From Saccostrea cucullata (taxonomy: Eukaryota): 64,000 nucleotides of DNA. The notes under the pieces are model-generated. The model did not search any database. It saw nothing but the letters and a program-made list of their open reading frames with translations, and was not told where the DNA came from. The position numbers and the translations under genes were made by a program. This document shows positions 15,301 through 46,787 of this stretch, in pieces. The number at the start of each line of letters is the position of its first letter. Within the stretch, counting starts at the first letter, position 1. Location of the stretch: contig NW_026929674.1 in NCBI RefSeq assembly GCF_032062105.1, positions 62,001 to 126,000 on the forward strand, given 5' to 3'.

Positions 15301-15893
15301 AAATATGGTCAATAGGTTGCTGACGGTTATTTAAAAAAAATTAAATTTTAGTCACTGGAAAGTAATAAAATTAAAATTGTCTGAAGATATTTTATGATCA
15401 TTAGTTTGTTAAATGGTCAGGTTTTGGTAATATCATTAACGTTTTAAATGGCTTCATCAAATTTAATGACACTATTACGTCGATGCAATAATAATAATGA
15501 ACGAACGAGTGACACAAATAAAATGTTAAATACAGGAATTTAATTGTCCTTGAAAAAAAATATCAGCTTTGCGATTTTCTATACAGAATCGAAAACACTT
15601 GTTAACCTGTTTGTTGTAAGAACCACTAGCCATGTTTTGGACGATGTTACAACATGAGTTCTCAGATTTCCTGTGGCTTTTATCTCTCCAGTGGTGCAGG
15701 TCAGATGTTAATTTCACAATTAAAGGTAAGTAATGGTTTGTGATAGTAAGTTTCTTCTTTTTGACATGTGATTGATGACAGGTTTGGTCTCGTGAAGCAA
15801 TAAGGCTTCTTAAATTTATTCAACGTCCGGGACAAAACATTTTACTTTTAATTAAAATTTAGGTGTTAGGCGTAGTAGGTTTATGGACAGAAA

Positions 15894-16288
15894 ATGAACA
15901 GATGTTTGTTGGTCCTTTTGCTGACTTTGTACCATGCAGAAGGGTGGATCTCGGACACCAGACGGAGTAGACTAGGGAGTGTAGAATCTGATGGAAGAAC
16001 AAGTAAAGGGGGCCTAATGGCAAACTTTGAACTGAAACTGAAAGGCACAGAAGAGATAAATGGAGGCACAGTGACTAGATTCGAAGTGAAGATCAATGAC
16101 AGGGCAACCAAAACATTGGAAGGAACTGAGGATTTCAGACTGAATTTAAAGGATAACAAAGAAGAGAAGAGAAAATCAAAGTCCGGTTTCAGATTAGAAT
16201 CAAATGACAACAATGTTACGGGGAAAAGAACAGTGGACGATTTCAAACTAGACTTGGATGATAAAGACCACAAGCATGAACATAAAGA
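15894..16288 (+). CDS. Distal first coding exon (signal peptide plus charged repeat segment), probably of the EMI-domain membrane protein gene
   Basis: MNRCLLVLLLTLYHAEG signal peptide. Acceptor tttag at 15862, upstream non-coding donor AAAG/gtaagt at 15725, donor GA/gtaagt at 16288. Phase 2 matches exon 39535. Confidence 0.75.
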
Positions 16289-17535
16289 GTAAGTATGCGA
16301 CGTAATGTACTGCTGGTAGAACCATTTGTTATATGAACATTCCAAGGTTACATGCTCCATAGAAAAATAAGGTTAATGTGTTTTATAAAGAATTAATTGT
16401 TTACACATAACTGGATACTTTCTAAACTTACTATATGATTACTTTTACTATATAATGTTTCTTCATGGAGATTGCCTTTTGTGACTTTTTAAATTATATT
16501 TTGAGGGTTATTAAGAATGCATTGTCGAAATTAAACACATTTAATTTGGACAGATATGTTTCAAAAATTGAAACATTTTTTGGAAGAAGGGCATTGACCC
16601 TCCTTTCCATCATTACATTTCGGACAAAATTTCATAATTTTAATTTTTGACTGTAAATGACAGTCAATACTGCACTCATTTTTACAATTCTGAATATATT
16701 CCATGTCAAGTCTTTCTTAAAAACTAGTCCCATATGTTCATTTAAAAAGTAGTCACGAAATAAAATGTTACTTTGTTTTAGATATATGAGTAATATATTA
16801 TCTACTATACATAAACCAATATGCATTAATTATGAGTTTGGTTTCCTGATCATGAAGTGAAACATTTGATTTAAGAAATGATTTACTTGAATTAGAGAAC
16901 TGCCACTGAAAGGAAGTAAGAAAAACCCATCAATCTTTCTGTTTAGCATTTAGGAATTTTCTTAATTGATACCTGGAAGGAAAATGACATCAGTTACATT
17001 TTTTGATACTTAAAAAGGTTAAAAAACGGAAATCTCTGTTTGTTTTCATATCAAAATAGACTCATCTTTTGTAAACGTTATTGTTGTTTCTTTTTTTTAT
17101 TAATATCAAATCAGGATGCAAGTATTAAAAATAAAAGTTTTGTTTTCGTGTCAATTATATGCGTATAGTAATGAAGAAATTAAATTGTTGTATGGAGAAC
17201 AAAACACTTTATTGTATTGCCCTTCTGTAATATATAAATGCCCCTGAAAATTCATTCAAATCAGAAAAAGAAAAATACCAATTAAGATAATTTGTTTGAA
17301 CAATACAGAAAATTCTCTATATAATAATTTCAAAGAAGCAAATTTTCAAATTTGATTTTTTGTGAATCTTTTAACCAGTTTACCAGTTTATTAACATCTC
17401 TTTGGTTGTTATTTAACAACACAGAGATCAATACATATTAATATAACATATATACATACATGCGTGAGCATAACATATAACATATATACAAAGTGTGTTT
17501 ATAATCAAGTATTTCCATATATGTTTACATTGATG

Positions 17536-20500
17536 TTAACCTGGAGGTTTGACTCTCTCGTTTAAAATTTTAATAAAAGAACAGAGTTTACTCAATAGTC
17601 CAACATTTTTTGAAGAAAACAATTCATTAAATTTGATAATATTTGGTCTTGTAAAATAATATTTCGGAATGTACAATTTTCTTTCATCTTTTAATTTTTC
17701 ACAACATAAAATATAGTGGAATTCATCACCAAGATCATTTTTGCATAAAAGACAAATTCTATTAATTCTTTCAATACCTTCCCATCTTCCTGTTTCAATG
17801 GGTAATTTATGGTTTGCTGTTCTAAATCTAGCTAAAATTTGTTTCTTATAATTATTTAACCTGCTATCTACATAAAATTGACATCCAAAGTGTAAATTTG
17901 TAAATAGATTATATGTCACACCTTTTGAAGAATCTTTACAGGTTGAATTCCAATTTTGTTGAAACTGATCTAATAATTTTTGCTTCAAACTTTTAATAAG
18001 CCAATTTCTATTAAATAATTGATTCTGGTTCCAAATATTACTATATCCACAATTGTCTAAAATTGATTTCAAATTCTTTAACCATTTAGATTCATGTCCA
18101 TTATCAAATTTTGCACGAAGTAATTTATACATTAAACAACAATATTTTGATTGTTTTCCATATAAAATTTTTGACCAGTATGCAATAATTCTTGTTTTGA
18201 TATGTATACTTAAAGGTACTCTACCTAATTCACCATAGATCATAAAATTTGGAGTACTTGGTTTTAAATGAAAGAGCATTTTACAAAATTTTAAATGTAC
18301 TCTTTCTATCATTTCAACATTACCATAACCCCACACTTCACAACCATACAATAAAATTGGAATTACAATCTTGTCGAACAAATACAATTGGTCATAAAGA
18401 GAAAGATGTAATTGGTTACCCTTTTTTAAAATACCATACATAGCTTTCGTTGCTCTTTCAGTAGCATATTGTTTTGTCTTAATAAATGAGCCTGTTGTTG
18501 AGAATATAATTCCTAGATATTTGAAATGTTTAACAATTTCAATTTCTTTGTTATTGTAATAAAAAACTTTATGCGGTATACGTCCCTTTGAAAAAATCAT
18601 TATTTTTGTTTTTTCTATATTAACTTCTAGCTTCCATTTTTCACAATACAATAAAAAAACTGTGCAACTGATTCTGTAAATCTTCGGTTGATTCCGATAG
18701 TAAAACTGTATCATCTGCATACAAAATAATCAGCATTTTTAACAAGACACCAAGTTCTTTTTCAATCTCATTTGATATTGTTGAGATACCAATATTGTTA
18801 TGTGCAATTAAAAAAGATTCTACATCATTCAGAAATAAAGCAAATAAAAAGGGCGATAAGTTTTCCCCTTGTCGTACCCCTATTTTGCATGGAAAATATT
18901 CAGTAACCATATCATTAACAGCTATTCTGGATTTACTCTCAGAGTACATTTTCACTATAACTTCAAAACATTTTCCGGTAATATTATTTTGAATGAGTTT
19001 TTGCCACAGTCCTATTCTCCATACATTGTCAAAAGCAGCCTTAAAATCTATAAATGCACAATATAGTTTCTTTTTCAATAAAAAGGATAATTCGATTAGC
19101 GATTGTAAAGTAAAAATGTTATCTATTGTAGAATAATTTGATCTGAAACCCCCTTGATTTTCATTTAGTATATCATATTGCTCAGCATAATTATTTAATC
19201 GTTTAGCTAAGATGGATGTGAATAATTTACCCATGCAACTTAATAAAGTTATAGGTCTATAGTTTTCAGGGTCATTGTCGTTCCCCTTATTTTTATAAAT
19301 AGGCAATATATCACCAACAATCCAAGCTTCAGGTAAAATTGCTGAGTTAAAAACAATATTAAATAACATAACATATACCGGTAACATAATACTAGCAGAG
19401 GATTTTATGTATTCATTATAAATTTCATCACTTCCAGAACTTTTGTTATTTTTAATATTTTCAATTGCGTGTTTTATCTCATCTTCAGTTATCACTGAGT
19501 CTAGTTCTTCATTAGTATATGTATTTCTAATCTCATTTGATAGTGGTTCGTCATTATTTACATCACCATTATTGACGTTTTTAAAGTAATTGTAAAATTC
19601 ATCAATATTAATATCACATTTTTTGTTGTTCGGCCTTTTATTAATTATTTTCCAATAACTTTTTGGATCGTTACTTCTCAGTTTTCTAATTTTTTTCATA
19701 ATTAAATTTCTATGTTTTTTCATACTTTTATCCATAGTATTTTTATATTTACGTTCATTGATACGTACTTCTTCTTTTAAGATGCTTGAACGATATTTCC
19801 TAAACATTCGTTTTGATTTCCTATATTTTTTTTGTGCTATTTTGCATTCTTTATCAAACCATTCTTTTCTTTTCTGTGGTAGTTTATTGTGAGTTTGGCG
19901 AGCATTAAATATTCCAAAAGTTGTGCGTGCCGAGTCAAGCAGTAGACCTACAGTGTCTGAAAAGATTTCATTAACCTGATTTTTATTTAAATCATTGATA
20001 TCAATATTGCTCAAGTCATATTTTAATTTTCTTAGAACATTTAAATCAATATTTTGACAAAATTCTTCTGTTTTTTCATTATCCCATGGTTTTATCTTCT
20101 GACATGAAAAATTATTTTTATTTGTCTTACTTTCTTCTTTAGTTTGGTAGTTATCATTTGAGATATATGAGTTCACACTTATTTCACAAAGTAGTGGCAT
20201 ATGGATATCAGAATATAACCTATTGAATTCTAGTACAGAAAAATTTTGCACATGTTTCAAAAATTCAACACTACATATACAATAATCGACCACACTTGAT
20301 TTTGTTGTAGTAAATTTACCCTCTTCTAATCTTCCATTCAATAAATACATATTGTTATTTTTACAAAAATTTAATAAATTGTTTCCAAAATTATTCTTTG
20401 TTTTATCTAATGATTTTCGTTTCCTTGGTACATTTATCTTTTGTAATTCAAATACATTTGAGAGACAGTCTAAACTGGGATCATCTAACTCAAATTCTTG

Positions 20501-21049
20501 ATTTGATATGTCATCTGGTTCAATAAAATCATCTCTATCAGAAGTTCTTGCATTAAAATCTCCAATTAGGCATATATGGCTAAATTCACTCTGTAAATTC
20601 AAAAATTCAAGTTCAATTTCTTCAAAAGCTTCCCTTGAACTATATATAGAACTTTCTGGTGGTATATAAACAACACCTAAAATCAAGTCTTTATCTGAAT
20701 TAATTAAAGAAGATTTTAATCTTAACCAGTGAACAAATTTACAATCTGTGTGAACGATAGTTACATAATCTTTGATAGATTTTTTGTATCCAATTACAAT
20801 ACCACCAGAACGTCTGTTTGAAAATCCGTGCCTATTTTTAGCATCAAACAAAAAATAATTGTGATCAATCGGTGTAGTATCATCAGTTTTTGTCTCTGTA
20901 AAACACAATATATCAAAGGAAGAGATAAATGTTGAAAATTCTGGATAATTTATGCGTCTACTTAAACCACAAACGTTTAATCCTAAGATTTTAAGTTTGC
21001 AATCAGTTCCAGTGGATGAATCGAGAGAGTCGGTTGGATCACTGTCCAC
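17536..21049 (-). CDS. LINE ORF2 (APE endonuclease plus reverse transcriptase), split by one frameshift at ~18653-18659
   Basis: EN motifs LNVCGL, FTET, VYIPP, GDFNART, SDIH. RT motifs NYRPITLL, FIDFKAAFD, GVRQGENLSPFLF, LYADD, FKYLGI. Removing one T from the T7 run (- strand) joins 18641-21049 to 17536-18720 (..LHSFLLYCEKW..). Confidence 0.92.
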
Positions 21050-21085
21050 TAAATTGTCACGTGGTAGATTTCCTCCTAGGTTATC

Positions 21086-22336
21086 CTACCTTTGACTTAC
21101 TGAGCCGCGTCTGTTGAATGGTCGAAATTCACGGGCCATTGGAGTTAGGCGCGGATCTACGTTGTGTGGTGCCGCTGGTGCGTTATATGGGTTTTCCTGA
21201 CCGAAATCTGTCGCCACGAATCGCTCGCCGTTGATATAGAGTTTATCCATAACCAGTTGCGCTTTGATGCCCTGTCGTTTAGCTTCTTTGTAATGCGGGT
21301 ATAATATTTTCCGGTTATCGTTTATTTCCTTGGGAAATTGCTCGAATACACTGAAATCTGCGTTGCCTTGATCGCCTCGTTCCCGAAGATCGGTGATCAC
21401 CGTGATTGCAGTTTTTCGGACCTTTTCACGATCCTTAAAGTTTACAAATTTTGCCACAACTGCCCGAGATTTTGCCTCTTGCTTCCGGCCCATACGATGT
21501 ACTCGATGAAATGGAATTTCATCCGTTATTCCGAGTTTTTCAGAAATGAACGCTTTTAGTGCCTGCTCACATTGTTCTGATGTTTCATCTTTTGGTTCAT
21601 GAATTCCCACAAATATAAGGTTGTCACGCATGGACCTTGCTTGTAATTCATTTTGCTGGTCTTTTAGATCTAACATTTTTTTTGTCATAATAGTCATTTG
21701 TTTTCTAAGTGCCTCACTCTCTTTTTCTAAGTTCTCATGTATTTTTTTGGATCTCTTCATTTCTGCTACTATCTCTTTTGATGTTTCTTCATTCTCATCT
21801 AACTTTTCACTAGTGAATATAATGTTTTTTTCAATGTCTGACATTTTTGTTTTCAATTCAAGCACGTCAGTTGTGACAGTATTCATTGTTACTTCAAATT
21901 TGCTGATTCTAGATTCAATTTGATCAAGTTTATCCAATTTTTGGCAAACTTTGTCCAATGTTTTGGCCAAATTGTCTATTTTATTACCATAATCAATTGG
22001 CTGTAATCCACCCTGATATTGTTGTACCTGTTGTACAGGGTGAACAGGCGCTACAGGTGAGAAACTGTAATTCATTACCGGCAATTGAGACATTTGTGGT
22101 ATTTGGTATGTATTATTTTGATTGTTCTGCATACTCTGTTGATTGTTTATTGGAGTTGAGAATAACGGTTGCGAGATTCTTTGTGTGTCTACATTGTCTT
22201 GAGAAGTACTCATAACACTTACTTTTCTTTGTTGCGCTTCACTGCTCAAATCTGGGCCTTCTTTTCTTTTCTTCCCTTTCTTAGATTTATTTCCATTAGA
22301 ACCGCTGGATCCACTTCCAGATGTTTTAGGCCTCAT
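21086..22336 (-). CDS. LINE ORF1 protein (coiled coil plus L1-type RRM/CTD, 416 aa)
   Basis: Long heptad region followed by RSMRDNLIFVGI..FHRVHRMG..RAVVAKF...DREKV..VFEQFPKEI motifs typical of L1/Tnp_22-like ORF1. Confidence 0.88.
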   Translation of the reverse strand: MRPKTSGSGSSGSNGNKSKKGKKRKEGPDLSSEAQQRKVSVMSTSQDNVDTQRISQPLFSTPINNQQSMQNNQNNTYQIPQMSQLPVMNYSFSPVAPVHPVQQVQQYQGGLQPIDYGNKIDNLAKTLDKVCQKLDKLDQIESRISKFEVTMNTVTTDVLELKTKMSDIEKNIIFTSEKLDENEETSKEIVAEMKRSKKIHENLEKESEALRKQMTIMTKKMLDLKDQQNELQARSMRDNLIFVGIHEPKDETSEQCEQALKAFISEKLGITDEIPFHRVHRMGRKQEAKSRAVVAKFVNFKDREKVRKTAITVITDLRERGDQGNADFSVFEQFPKEINDNRKILYPHYKEAKRQGIKAQLVMDKLYINGERFVATDFGQENPYNAPAAPHNVDPRLTPMAREFRPFNRRGSVSQR

Positions 22337-22523
22337 AACACGCAGTTGAAATCATTCGGTAAATCCCCCAAAGTTTGTTAATTTTAAACTTAAGATATCT
22401 TATAGTCAGAGCTCGAAAAATCATGACTCTCATTCAGCTCACGCATGCGCAACCGAAATCTTAATATTACAATTGGTAAAATTAAGATTACTATTAATTA
22501 TCTATTGATTAAAATCTTGTCAT

Positions 22524-29028: not shown

Positions 29029-30279
29029 TTACAAATTTGCGGCAATAGCCTCTCTGATAATGTTAGCATTTTGTGGGGCGTTTCCCAAGCATCTGTTTTG
29101 GTCCATGTTAATAGTCCTCGTCCATTCGTCAATCGCCTGTACGCTGTCTAGCTCGCTCAAATTATTTAGAACACAGCATGCTGTGACAACATCCACGAAA
29201 AAGGGAAGTTTCCCATCAAATCTTTTCGAAAGTTTTCTCCATCTAGATTTGAGTCTTCCAAAAGTATTTTCTATAACCATTCGTGCGCTTGAGTGTTTGA
29301 AATTGTATTGTGCTTGTACCGGATCAAGATTTCCTTTAAAAGGTGTCATAAGAGAATTTGACAACGGGTAAGCAGCGTCGCCAATGAGATGTAATGGTAC
29401 GTTTACAGTATCAATTAATAAAGAAAGTTGCGGTAAAAAAGTTGACATTTTTTTGCATATAGAGGAATGTTTGTATATTCTAGCATCATGAGCCTTTCCA
29501 GGCCAACCAATATATACGTCCAAAAATCTGTAGCGATGGTCTGAAACGGCCTGCATAACTATTGAATAGAAACCTTTCCGATTATAATAGTCATTTGGAT
29601 TTTCGGAAGGTGCCAAAATCTGAAAGTGAGTACCATCAATTGCGCCTATTGTTTGGGGAAAACCTCGGAAATTAAAACCATGTACAATATCGCTAGCTTC
29701 CTCCTCAGTTCTAGGGAATCTTATAACTTTTGAACACATGTTTTTCAAAGCAAATACCACATCATGGACGATTTTCCATACAGTCGATTTTCCACAGGCA
29801 AATGTTACTGCCAGAGAACGAAAATCAATCGGCGAACTCAGATACCACAAAGTGATTAAAATTTTTTTTTGCAGTGGAACCGCAGTTCGCATATTTGTGT
29901 CTTTCGATTTAACCGTGTCCAGTTCCTTGACCAAGTAATCAAACGTATATTTGTGTACCCTTATGTGGCTCTTAAATTCACTCTCCTTCCACGACAGAAA
30001 ATCCGTATACAGATCACTTTCCCTGTCAAACTTCCAAGTTGATCTTTTGAATTGTAATTGATTTCGCATATTCAATAAAGAACCAATAATCAAAAAAAAC
30101 AATCGTCTACGATGTCTGCGATTTTTCATGAGACGTTCCCACCTTGATTTTCTTCTTTGTTTCAGTCTAAGATATCTCTCTTTTCTTTGTCGATGTAGCA
30201 AATTATGATGACATTGTAAATTGACTTGGAAAAAACAGCGAAGGAAAAGGAAAAATTTGCATAGTGTTGCTTTCTCCAT
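29029..30279 (-). CDS. Harbinger DDE transposase (DDE_Tnp_4/HARBI1-like), 416 aa, intact
   Basis: GAIDGTH, YYNRKGFYSI.MQAVSD, GWPGKAHDARIY, LIGDAAYPL and ARMVIENTFGRLKSRW motifs; catalytic D/D/E all present. Confidence 0.95.
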   Translation of the reverse strand: MEKATLCKFFLFLRCFFQVNLQCHHNLLHRQRKERYLRLKQRRKSRWERLMKNRRHRRRLFFLIIGSLLNMRNQLQFKRSTWKFDRESDLYTDFLSWKESEFKSHIRVHKYTFDYLVKELDTVKSKDTNMRTAVPLQKKILITLWYLSSPIDFRSLAVTFACGKSTVWKIVHDVVFALKNMCSKVIRFPRTEEEASDIVHGFNFRGFPQTIGAIDGTHFQILAPSENPNDYYNRKGFYSIVMQAVSDHRYRFLDVYIGWPGKAHDARIYKHSSICKKMSTFLPQLSLLIDTVNVPLHLIGDAAYPLSNSLMTPFKGNLDPVQAQYNFKHSSARMVIENTFGRLKSRWRKLSKRFDGKLPFFVDVVTACCVLNNLSELDSVQAIDEWTRTINMDQNRCLGNAPQNANIIREAIAANL

Positions 30280-30837
30280 TTTGATAAATGTTCAAAAGGT
30301 GACGTAATTAATTTTAATGACGTCATAATACAATTAACGTCGTCAATTTTTTTACAATCTTGCTCTTCGTAACCTTGCCATCAACATAATTTTCTGAATA
30401 TTTTCTGAATATTATTATTTTTTATCGTTCAGTTTAAAAAATAAACTTGTATACTTTCAGTTAAAGATACATGCATACTTTGAACCAATTATTTACATGT
30501 GATGCGGCCTTTACGTATTTTCTGTTCTGAGCAGTTTCAATAAATTTTTGTGTTAGAAAAAATATAGCAATTTTAATATTGCTTTTACTAATTGGTTAAT
30601 ATCATTATTATTTCTTTTGTCTTAGCCATTGAATAATTTCTCGCACCTGCTTACCTGGAAATATTTACAAATTTAATGCGAATTAGTTTACTTCGCATTA
30701 ACGTCGTGTGAACGCTATTTAATTCGCATTAATTTAATTCGCATTAGTTTACTTCGCATTTACTTCGCATTAGTTTACTGCGAATTAAACTCTCCGTGTG
30801 AACAGGGCACAAATTTTTATTATCACAATGACACTTA

Positions 30838-43900: not shown

Positions 43901-46787
43901 GTAGGGTTTTTTTCTGAAAAAGAAATGAGATATTCAGACCTTTACTTCTAGGGTTCAATCCTAACATTTTACTAAAACTATGCAATATCTTTGAAATTTT
44001 ACTATATTCTAGGGGGACCAAGTAGATATACATGTACATTGTATTTTTTCTAAATTCGTGAAATATGTGGTCCCTGGATGTAGAGCTTGCTCAGGGTGGA
44101 ATTATTTTAAAATATTTCTTAACATCGGGAATACAGGCAGTTTGCTTGGTTGTACAAGGCTTTAAAGCCCCTACTTTATTCTTAAAATATTAACATCTTA
44201 ATATTCACGGCTTATTTTCTGGAATAGTTGGTCATATAATACACAAAATAGGTTTTTATCATATGCTTACGGCAAGCAGTATGGTCCTGTACACGTTTTT
44301 TAAATTTTATTGTTCTTTTCCAGAGGTAGACGACCGAGGCCGAGAGTCAAAGATGCCAAGGTTGAGCGCACCTGTTCAGGAAGATAAACCTAAGAACCTT
44401 AAATCTCTTCCTAAATACCCGGCATCTTATGACAACCAAAGATATGGTCCAATGATGCGCACGCAGCCTCCACCAGACAGGTGGACACCAAACAACATGG
44501 CAATGCGCAGGATCCAAAAGATGATGGAGCAGAGATTGAGGTTGATAGAAATGATTGAAAGAAAGATGAGAGAACGTGAACAGTCTGTTTCTACTGTTCC
44601 CCCAGTTCCTCAATCTCCGGTAGGAAAACTTTTCCCTGCCGTAGGAAAATTTATAACAGTGAGCAAGTCTTTCATTCCTGCACGGAAAGGTATGTCAACA
44701 CCACAACAGACCAAGATATCACAAATACCCATCCGTCAACAGCCTGCCAGACAGGTACCCAGAATTCCAAAGCCACAACAACAAAAACCACAACTCATTA
44801 TCTCACAGAAAAAGAGCTTTGTACAGATTCCACGACCGTCAACCCCACAATTCTCTCCTGTCAGACAGTCCACACGTGTTCATATCAACATGCCAAATCC
44901 TTTCCCACAAATTCCTCAACGTCCACCAATGCAACAGCGACAAATGCCTCAGATTCCACGCACACCAGATCGACGCTTCCAGATGATGCCAGCAAATGCT
45001 CCAATGAACACACACTCACAATTCCCCAGAATCCCTCCCCATCCCATGTCTCAGCTCCTTCAGCGTATGGGTCAAGACAGGGGGGTGTTCCTGCCAAGGG
45101 TTCCTGTCCAGATGCCACCAGTTCAGGTTCAACCAGGACCCAACCTTGGTAAGCTTTAAAAAAACAGTGGCAATCTTTTTTCTCTCAAAAATCAAAATTC
45201 GAAGTTATTAGAAGTTGGCAATATAGTGTTTTCTTCTTAACTTCATACGTATATTAAAATTGTATATGATAAAAATTTCTTTTTTAAAGGTTTCCCTTCA
45301 CCTCCACCATGTTTCGCTGCCTATCTCGACGTGGTTCAATCCTGTTTTAAGGAGTCGGGTGTCGAGATGCCCCCAGATCATGGCATTCTTAATGGAGACT
45401 ATAATTACCGGGGCGTCTGTCAGTAAGTAAAGTTAATTAAATTCCAATTTTTACTTAATTTAGCTCGCTTAATATTATCAAAGGGCTTGATATAGCCAGA
45501 TATTCTCAACCTACGATCAAACTGTAATTAAGAGAATGTTTACGCGTTGTTCTTGTTTTCAAGGGAGAAGATTCCTATTGCTGATTGTATAAAACGTTCT
45601 GTTCATCCATGTTCCACACTCCAGGAACATATGTTAGTCCGAACCACAATGGTCAACACCCTCTCTGAGATTGATAGGATCTGTCGTATCGACAATAGTA
45701 GGTTTTATATTTCTGCTTTGAAAAATAACAAATATCTAAGAATGAATTCTTGTACTGCGAGTATATGAATATTCAGTTAGAATGCACAACTTTATCTTTA
45801 AATTCTTGAAATTCGACATGTTGAAAGTGAAATTTCAAGTACATTTCTGATTCTGTAGTTCGAGGTATTGAGCACCGTATGTCAGCTGGAGACGATATCA
45901 CTCCGCCGCCGACAGAGCTTCCACAGGACAACACACACATGCACGGTGACGTAGTCCACAGCCACCCACACGACCATCCACACGATCACTCACACGGTCA
46001 TTCACACGATCACTCGCACGATGATCATGAACATCTTCCACTGGACACTCCACTCCATGAGAACACAATTCAGGTGCAACCAGCTACAGAACCCTCAACA
46101 GACGGAATACAGTTCCTTAGACCTTCAGGTCAGTTGATCAAAAGTTCATTGCTACAAACATGGCTACAGCCTTACAGATAATACTGATCTTAAGTATGAT
46201 ATACTTTTGGACACTTTTAACATTCATTATTTCTTTTGTTCTCAGATCAAATCAAACCTGAACCAGTAATAGACGACAAGCAAGACATTGCAACTGAAAT
46301 AAAGAATGAAATCAAACCTGAGATCAAACAAGCCATCGATGAGGCGAAGAAAGACGAAAGTGTTATGGTGGAACTTACCAAGATGATCGAAAACAATGTG
46401 GATGGACATGGTCATGCCCATCCTCATATACAGCACACTCATGGTGACATCACACATGAGTATTATCTTCCAATCCTTATCGGTACAGCCATCGGTGTTG
46501 CCGCCATCTTCCTTCTTCTGCTTGCTATTCTTTGTGTTTGTTGCCGAAGAAGAATCAAGAAGAAAGTTTATGTTGAAAAAGAACCCGAAAAACCAAAGTT
46601 GTTCGAGGGAATCTACACTATTGGAGTGCCTCCTCCAGTTTATGAAGTGAACGGTATTCCTCCATTGTCGTATGAAGAAGTCCGAGGGGTTAAAATTACG
46701 GGTTCACCGTCTTCTGTTAGACGTCATAATGACGCAAACGACGAGGTTGAGTACAGCTCGCGCCGTGGAGTCGTGTCAGACATTTAA
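39535..46787 (+). CDS. Common exons of an uncharacterised type-I membrane protein: EMI domain, Pro/Gln-rich region, Cys-helical segment, His-rich tract, TM, cytoplasmic tail (~860 aa with the distal first exon)
   Basis: Exons 39535-39705, 40617-40729, 44324-45148, 45290-45422, 45564-45697, 45859-46128, 46246-46787; all GT-AG, phases consistent, no stops. EMI signature C...PC...C...CCPGW...C. TM LPILIGTAIGVAAIFLLLLAILCVCC followed by RRRIKKK. AATAAA at ~46965. Confidence 0.9.
40745..42230 (+). mobile_element. Oyster-type HINE (Helentron non-autonomous) containing ~7 tandem ~165-bp Cg170-like satellite units
   Basis: 5' TTTTTAGCTCACCTGAGCCGAAGGCTCAAGTGAGCT; 3' GTGGCCCCTGGGCCTCTT. Unit marker aaatcttcttctccag recurs at about 40957, 41122, 41289, 41446, 41610, 41761, 41927 and 42091. 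Confidence 0.92.

Follow-up and report, generated by a model that had tools for sequence, protein, structure and literature searches.

A single in-frame UAG between ORF1 and ORF2, conserved among relatives of a Saccostrea LINE, is a probable readthrough site

It has long been an open question how the second open reading frame (ORF2) of a long interspersed nuclear element (LINE) is translated from a bicistronic RNA, and the studied cases indicate reinitiation. In mammalian L1 and in SART1, ORF2 is made at a lower level than ORF1. L1 has a 63-nucleotide (nt) spacer followed by an ORF2 AUG, and SART1 has an overlapping stop and start, as far as the accessible sections of their descriptions go. 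Here we analyze the ORF1-ORF2 junction of a LINE copy, likely of the RTE-X clade, that lies in a 64,000-nt stretch of Saccostrea cucullata DNA (assembly GCF_032062105.1, contig NW_026929674.1, positions 62,001 to 126,000 of the forward strand). We call this whole stretch the window and number positions within it. The element shares with L1 a bicistronic LINE RNA and an ORF1 protein (ORF1p) of L1-type fold. Its junction differs, with no spacer stop and, in the clade, usually no AUG. We propose that the junction probably directs programmed UAG readthrough, which would yield an ORF1p-ORF2p fusion.

A close likeness is to gammaretroviral gag-pol (Moloney murine leukemia virus, MoMLV, type III), where one in-frame UAG lies between the structural and reverse transcriptase (RT) genes, with a G at +4 and, starting at about +12, a run of G. 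A further case comes from Paramecium, which has the ciliate genetic code. For its Group 3 retrotransposons of the type without long terminal repeats (non-LTR), a separate ciliate clade, readthrough has been suggested, with no stop context or motif given in the sections available (PMC5405496). According to the accessible part of PMC13517186, type III readthrough sites read UAGGGV, UAGGUA or UAGGAU and “most likely generally” require downstream structure; the MoMLV stimulator begins at +12; and animal viruses read through UAG or UGA, not UAA. The portions of PMC5972666 and PMC5009743 at hand describe reinitiation in L1 and SART1 without naming readthrough in any LINE, and those of PMC10294476, PMC11203168, PMC3905857 and PMC5753468 do not describe the RTE-X junction or ORF2 translation. 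A literature search whose reach excluded Repbase and most subscription papers returned no report of a UAG readthrough junction in animal RTE-X. What we describe is thus a known clade and a known kind of recoding, combined with a testable signal in an apparently undescribed way.

An earlier note, made from the window sequence alone, had read ORF1 and ORF2 as one frame around a single UAG, with no frameshift at the junction, and the frames bear this out. On the minus strand, 421 open codons (22351..21086) end in a TAG at 21088-21086, and the same frame then runs on for 814 further open codons (21085..18641); the translation reads RRGSVSQR, the stop, then DNLGGNLPRDNLVDSDPTDSLDSSTGTDCKLKILGLNVCGL. 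The note had also placed the first Met of ORF2 more than 230 codons in and a GTG at 21049. Indeed, no Met follows the stop until codon 246, past the endonuclease motifs NVCG (codon 37), ETK (64) and GDFNAR (175), and in-frame near-cognate starts ahead of the endonuclease Asn are limited to that GTG (codon 13 after the stop) and an ATC at 20989. No ATG occurs in any frame within 200 nt downstream of the stop, and no 2A-like NPGP motif was seen by eye in the linker. The stop context is UAG-GAU, a Beier-Grimm type III readthrough hexamer, with A at +8. Contigs of sequencing runs X12 and X14 cross the UAG without a gap. No variant at 21086-21088 appears among the 40 variants listed (309 others exist), which we do not count as proof.

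To place this junction among its relatives, we collected two sets of loci. An endonuclease alignment yielded 42 metagenome loci, to which a single-protein scan added one and the window another, giving 44; 12 of them have no usable endonuclease start, leaving 32 readable discovery junctions. The validation set came from an RT alignment blind to the junction, which yielded 28 loci in genome contigs, 27 of them new. L070 (unrelated), L059 and L063 (both without an endonuclease) and L057 (open to the contig edge) were unreadable, so that 23 junctions remained. The endonuclease alignment returned no relatives in genome contigs, where the RT alignment did find loci, and three scans of viral contigs returned none. 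All but three of the 28 validation loci (25; L043-L056, L058 and L060-L069) are animal LINE contigs in two Sedimenticola symbiont genome bins, meaning that host DNA contaminates these species representatives.

Reading upstream from the endonuclease, the first in-frame stop is TAG in 24 of the 32 readable discovery junctions and in 21 of the 23 readable validation junctions. The terminal ORF2 stops of the same elements, used as a control (n = 25), are TAA in 13, TGA in 8 and TAG in 4. The earlier note had named a sense codon at the stop position as one sign of a copy-specific mutation, and none is present in any readable junction. Eight discovery junctions are exceptions, four of which (L026, L027, L030 and L032) are described below. 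ORF1 ends in TAG and is in frame in L021 and L025, each with one additional linker stop (the linker of L017, a sibling of L025, is open), and it also ends in TAG in L033, with an insertion. In L010 the first upstream stop is TAA and ORF1 was not detected. Two other discovery loci, L005 and L015, are decayed, and in each another stop lies 12 codons upstream. In the validation set, L045 has the TAG and the motif and a frameshifted linker, and L064 is decayed.

For motif counts we used 22 discovery junctions, after removing the siblings L028 and L037 and the distant L041 and adding L021, together with 21 validation junctions. These 43 were selected as TAG junctions, so “43/43 TAG” should not be taken as a finding; the counts given above are the unbiased ones. 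Their endonucleases share 24-80% pairwise identity (median, 34%). Homology to ORF1 falls in the frame of ORF2 and reaches the TAG in 10/22 discovery and 18/21 validation junctions, as expected if the frame relationship noted earlier is conserved, and wherever ORF1 was detected it is in frame with ORF2 (10/10 and 18/18). In most of the others the upstream DNA is too short or ORF1 is unmatched. A curated scallop RTE-X consensus, in the available part of the PMC10294476 supplement, has the same junction by eye, and there a Met precedes the Asn by three codons. Since the TAG recurs among families only 24-80% identical, the single in-frame UAG is, by these sequence comparisons, a real family-wide feature and not a copy-specific mutation.

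Two side observations concern these relatives. In L007, L018, L021 and L031 the ORF1 C terminus is apparently of a different type, unmatched by L1-type queries, and a UAG junction still follows; the comparison suggests ORF1 swaps that preserved the junction signal. In the excluded L041, a distant GC-rich LINE, a short telomere-like stretch comes after an in-frame TAG-G (L041:1904-1920).

The linker between the stop and the endonuclease Asn varies from 12 to about 549 codons across the 43 junctions, and it is almost free of stops: one in 943 codons in the discovery set (74 expected) and none in 1,388 codons of 19 of the 21 validation linkers (87 expected). This statistic is circular where the stop was defined as the first one upstream, and not where ORF1 homology fixes it (10 + 18 junctions). 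One linker, within a 7-member subfamily, carries a 15-nt insertion that maintains the frame. The AUG-less linker seen in the window likewise recurs, in that 34/43 linkers have no Met before the Asn and only 7/43 have one at least 6 codons ahead. Very long open linkers occur in L056:1557-3200 (548 codons), L046:1543-2470 (308), L002:1510-2250 (246) and L058:3057-3635 (192).

The nucleotides after the stop are conserved at fixed positions. Among the 43 junctions, G stands at +4 in 38, at +12 in 27, at +13 in 38 (a purine in all 43) and at +14 in 29, and +15 to +17 are purines in 39-40; in addition, -1 is A in 27 and +9 is C in 24. Both +4 G (19/21) and +13 G (18/21) were replicated in the RT-found validation set. 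By comparison, other TAG triplets in the same loci are followed by G in 14% of 456 cases. Position +12 is a silent third codon position at which the background frequency of G is 0.11; therefore, the constraint acts on the RNA. In the 7-member subfamily, the TAG and positions +4, +9, +12 to +15 and +18 to +21 are invariant, and the flanks have diverged. In the gammaretroviral signal the spacer is 8 nt long, and G is conserved at both +4 and +8; +8 is G in 22/43 RTE-X junctions, and only some families have +8 G and +10 C. RTE-X also differs from gag-pol in being a non-LTR element without a protease and without a detected pseudoknot or stable stem.

We favor readthrough because it explains together the shared frame, the UAG bias, the open linker, the missing AUG and the 3' signal at a fixed distance. 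The observations that could have told against this type of recoding (a sense codon, a linker AUG or a lost frame in the relatives) did not overturn the earlier proposal. Under this model, the majority of ribosomes would stop at the UAG and release ORF1p, and a few percent would decode it with a near-cognate tRNA, inserting an amino acid. The +4 G and the G/purine run, sited at the mRNA entry channel of the ribosome, would act as a mainly primary-sequence stimulator, and translation of the variable linker would yield a flexible tether. Through its coiled coil the fusion would enter ORF1p trimers, fixing a low ORF2:ORF1 ratio. Since the element encodes no protease, the fusion would be expected to stay uncut unless a host enzyme cleaves it. 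We consider it slightly better than an even bet that, more broadly, a major animal LINE lineage makes its RT as a retrovirus-style Gag-Pol-like fusion, with a structure-free UAG signal (+4 G, +12 to +17 G/purine) that has persisted while proteins diverged to about 30% identity and ORF1 was apparently swapped, and with the enzyme physically tethered, without a protease, to an ORF1p trimer.

A clade-wide in-frame UAG with a short signal at a fixed position would be a different answer to the ORF2 question, one with dozens of natural variants, and the junction may define a readthrough stimulator independent of RNA structure. A fused ORF1p-ORF2p would alter the view of ribonucleoprotein stoichiometry and cis-preference. 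In practice, RTE-X elements are misread by annotation: of 248 proteins retrieved, 28 are models that combine ORF1 with the endonuclease, and the three with matching DNA cross the stop via a predicted intron. A search for longer ORF1 proteins found one unrelated protein, and the same search missed known fused gene models. The search of protein representatives with a read-through query had no DNA context, so real fusions are indistinguishable there from gene-model artifacts.

Several results weigh against programmed readthrough. First, the discovery set showed MoMLV-like +8 G and +10 C (14/22 and 13/22) that the validation set did not replicate (8/21 and 4/21), and the strict type III hexamer occurs in only 22/43 junctions, even though UAG-G occurs in 38/43. 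Second, an in-frame Met precedes the endonuclease in 9/43 linkers. Third, L027, a decayed copy, has TAG-TGA and then an ATG, and L026, L030 and L032 have no ORF1 homology and an AUG-led ORF2; these three form a separate, well-supported branch (100/99), which may mark a loss of ORF1 and of the junction. Fourth, the validation set comes nearly entirely from the two contaminated bins, with one close subfamily; therefore, its 21 junctions are not 21 independent events. In addition, the endonuclease tree is weakly resolved (7 of 29 branches well supported), too weakly for counting gains and losses.

The tests for RNA structure belong with these adverse results. No downstream structure was found between +10 and +80 (mean z of +0.5, with 0/22 below -2, and of -0.17, with 1/21). 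The G-run arm paired with its own downstream kilobase no better than with shuffles (1/43 below -2), nor did it pair preferentially with its own endonuclease start over the starts from other families (P = 0.23; 0.66 when pruned to 35). We tried and rejected a helix that RNAalifold proposed in the 7-member subfamily, which did not rise above shuffles (81-157 of 500). The local pairings pointed out earlier, UAGG-auaa-CCUA and GGUAG...CUACC, are present in the minimum-energy fold of the window, yet within chance (z = -1.01; 31/200 shuffles fold as well), and the relatives have no conserved structure there (22 + 21 junctions). As for an H-type pseudoknot from +12, no stable or covarying downstream stem was found in tests within 1 kb that included no dedicated pseudoknot predictor. 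Thus, the parallel once drawn with gammaretroviral gag-pol survives for the conserved UAG-G; a pseudoknot of the gammaretroviral kind is not supported, and among pairings tested within 1 kb the stimulator looks like primary sequence.

The alternative that survives best, though we judge it unlikely, is termination at the UAG followed by an AUG-independent restart at or just after it, which would produce free ORF2p in a manner akin to mammalian L1 reinitiation. L1 ORF2 reinitiation is independent of AUG, and SART1 couples its frames via a downstream signal, as described in the available portions of PMC5972666 and PMC5009743. The open linker and the downstream signal are compatible with such a restart too, and most linkers offer a near-cognate codon (19/22 have CTG, GTG, ACG, TTG or more). 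However, these codons vary in identity and position, and L011 and L015 have none. Nor does the layout match an AUG that overlaps or adjoins the ORF1 stop, as in SART1: the window has no such ATG, and just 8/43 junctions have an in-frame ATG at a distance of about 30 nt or less from the stop, half of them upstream of it. Above all, a restart needs neither frame 0 nor UAG, and both are nonetheless kept.

Far less probable is splicing that removes the stop, or that uses UAG/G as a 3' splice site, and so links ORF1 or a leader to ORF2. UAG/G resembles an acceptor, which would account for the constant AG-then-G, the window stop sits in a donor-like stretch, and three Mytilus gene models (P0009, P0010 and P0016) omit 156 nt with GT..AG ends that span the TAG of family L004 (L004:78-366). 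We read this gap as a gene-prediction artifact, and gene models bridge the junction at differing points in different families. A pyrimidine tract is lacking (mean, 0.47; at least 0.7 in 1 of 42), only 3/22 junctions allow a GT donor at the stop, and splicing would not require an open linker continuous with ORF1. RNA run X22 shows no joint, although its 133 reads over 5.4 kb make this weak evidence (depth below 4).

We give equally little credence to A-to-I editing that converts the UAG to a Trp codon in some transcripts. The hepatitis delta amber/W site is a case of such UAG-to-Trp editing, UAG is a favored ADAR triplet, and editing would account for the strict use of UAG. Yet UAG pairing in 21 junctions (0.57/0.43/0.59) is no higher than at 165 control TAGs (0.55/0.44/0.58), and the G run at a fixed position is left unexplained. 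Finally, the chance is negligible that the UAG is a nonsense mutation confined to this copy of a single-ORF element, or that the host decodes UAG as sense: the window copy does carry another lesion, a frameshift near 18653, but the TAG recurs in families only distantly alike (median identity as above), ORF2 frames exceed 1,100 codons without a TAG, and 4/25 ORF2s terminate in one.

The copy that carries the junction is near full length, about 5.1 kb on the minus strand (17376..22450, both ends approximate and drawn from read depth and loose read ends). When contigs of the sequencing runs are placed on the window, depth drops past about 22370 and climbs toward the 3' end, a profile expected of 5'-truncated copies, and loose read ends at 17376-17378 mark the 3' boundary. 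The family is multicopy, with 5'-truncated copies and a simple-repeat 3' tail, and its ORF2 encodes an APE endonuclease and then RT, as Pfam and PDB sequence matches indicate; these are the features of an APE-type non-LTR retrotransposon. Of at least 60 families of direct repeats, the 20 largest contained no target-site duplication, the 5' end of the LINE being approximate. The RT segment is close to RTEX-10_CGi by eye, including its GVRQGENLSPFLFAL motif, and unlike three Proto2 references in the accessible part of the PMC10294476 alignment supplement; therefore, the element is likely an RTE-X LINE, an assignment made by eye. Its length fits bivalve RTE-X (RTEX) LINEs of about 5 kb, and its closest named proteins are from Mytilus. 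For some RTEX elements an esterase-type ORF1 has been reported, whereas the window element has an L1-type ORF1.

All parts of the element lie on the minus strand. ORF1 spans 21086..22336 (416 amino acids from the ATG at 22336), with a coiled coil, an RRM and a C-terminal domain. Pfam and PDB sequence searches did not recognize it, and a fold search did: an AlphaFold model of its last 237 residues (pLDDT 88.6) has the human LINE-1 ORF1p trimer 2ykp_A as its top Foldseek match (E = 2.5e-9), and on this modeled structure ORF1 is of the L1-type ORF1p fold. The likely readthrough codon that closes it (21086..21088) is followed by the conserved 3' context, with G at +4 and the purine/G run from about +12 to +17 (21070..21085), and by an open linker of 29 codons (20999..21085) that contains the GTG at 21049 and reaches the first endonuclease strand. 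The APE-type endonuclease domain occupies 20201..20998, with its motifs located (Pfam Exo_endo_phos, E = 4.6e-6; Exo_endo_phos_2, E = 1.4e-6). The RT core (18656..19282; Pfam RVT_1, E = 1e-27; best PDB match human L1 ORF2p, E = 1.3e-21) runs up to a one-base frameshift at 18653..18657, where intact relatives change frame. The extra base at 18653 is missing from contigs of runs X12 (75.8/75.8 depth) and X4 (32.9/46.7); thus, the frameshift is peculiar to the window copy or to the assembly. The 3' part of ORF2, with the thumb and a C-terminal Cys/His motif, ends in TAA (17536..18657), and the 3' untranslated region (17376..17535) ends in a short tandem octamer tail (repeat family D14).

Elsewhere, 99 nt of the ORF1 3' end (21100-21198) recur in diverged form within another poly(A) transcript; 10-13 RNA reads are loose-ended on both sides of this piece, which also occurs in an X14 contig. 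Directly 3' of the LINE, on the plus strand, lies a 137-codon ORF with a signal-peptide-like start (15879-16292). A Pro/Gln/Met-rich ORF of 321 codons without a Pfam match (44194-45159, plus strand) is probably a host exon. An intact 420-codon ORF on the minus strand (29029-30291) matches DDE_Tnp_4 (E = 5e-36) and HTH_Tnp_4, and we take it to be a Harbinger-type transposase.
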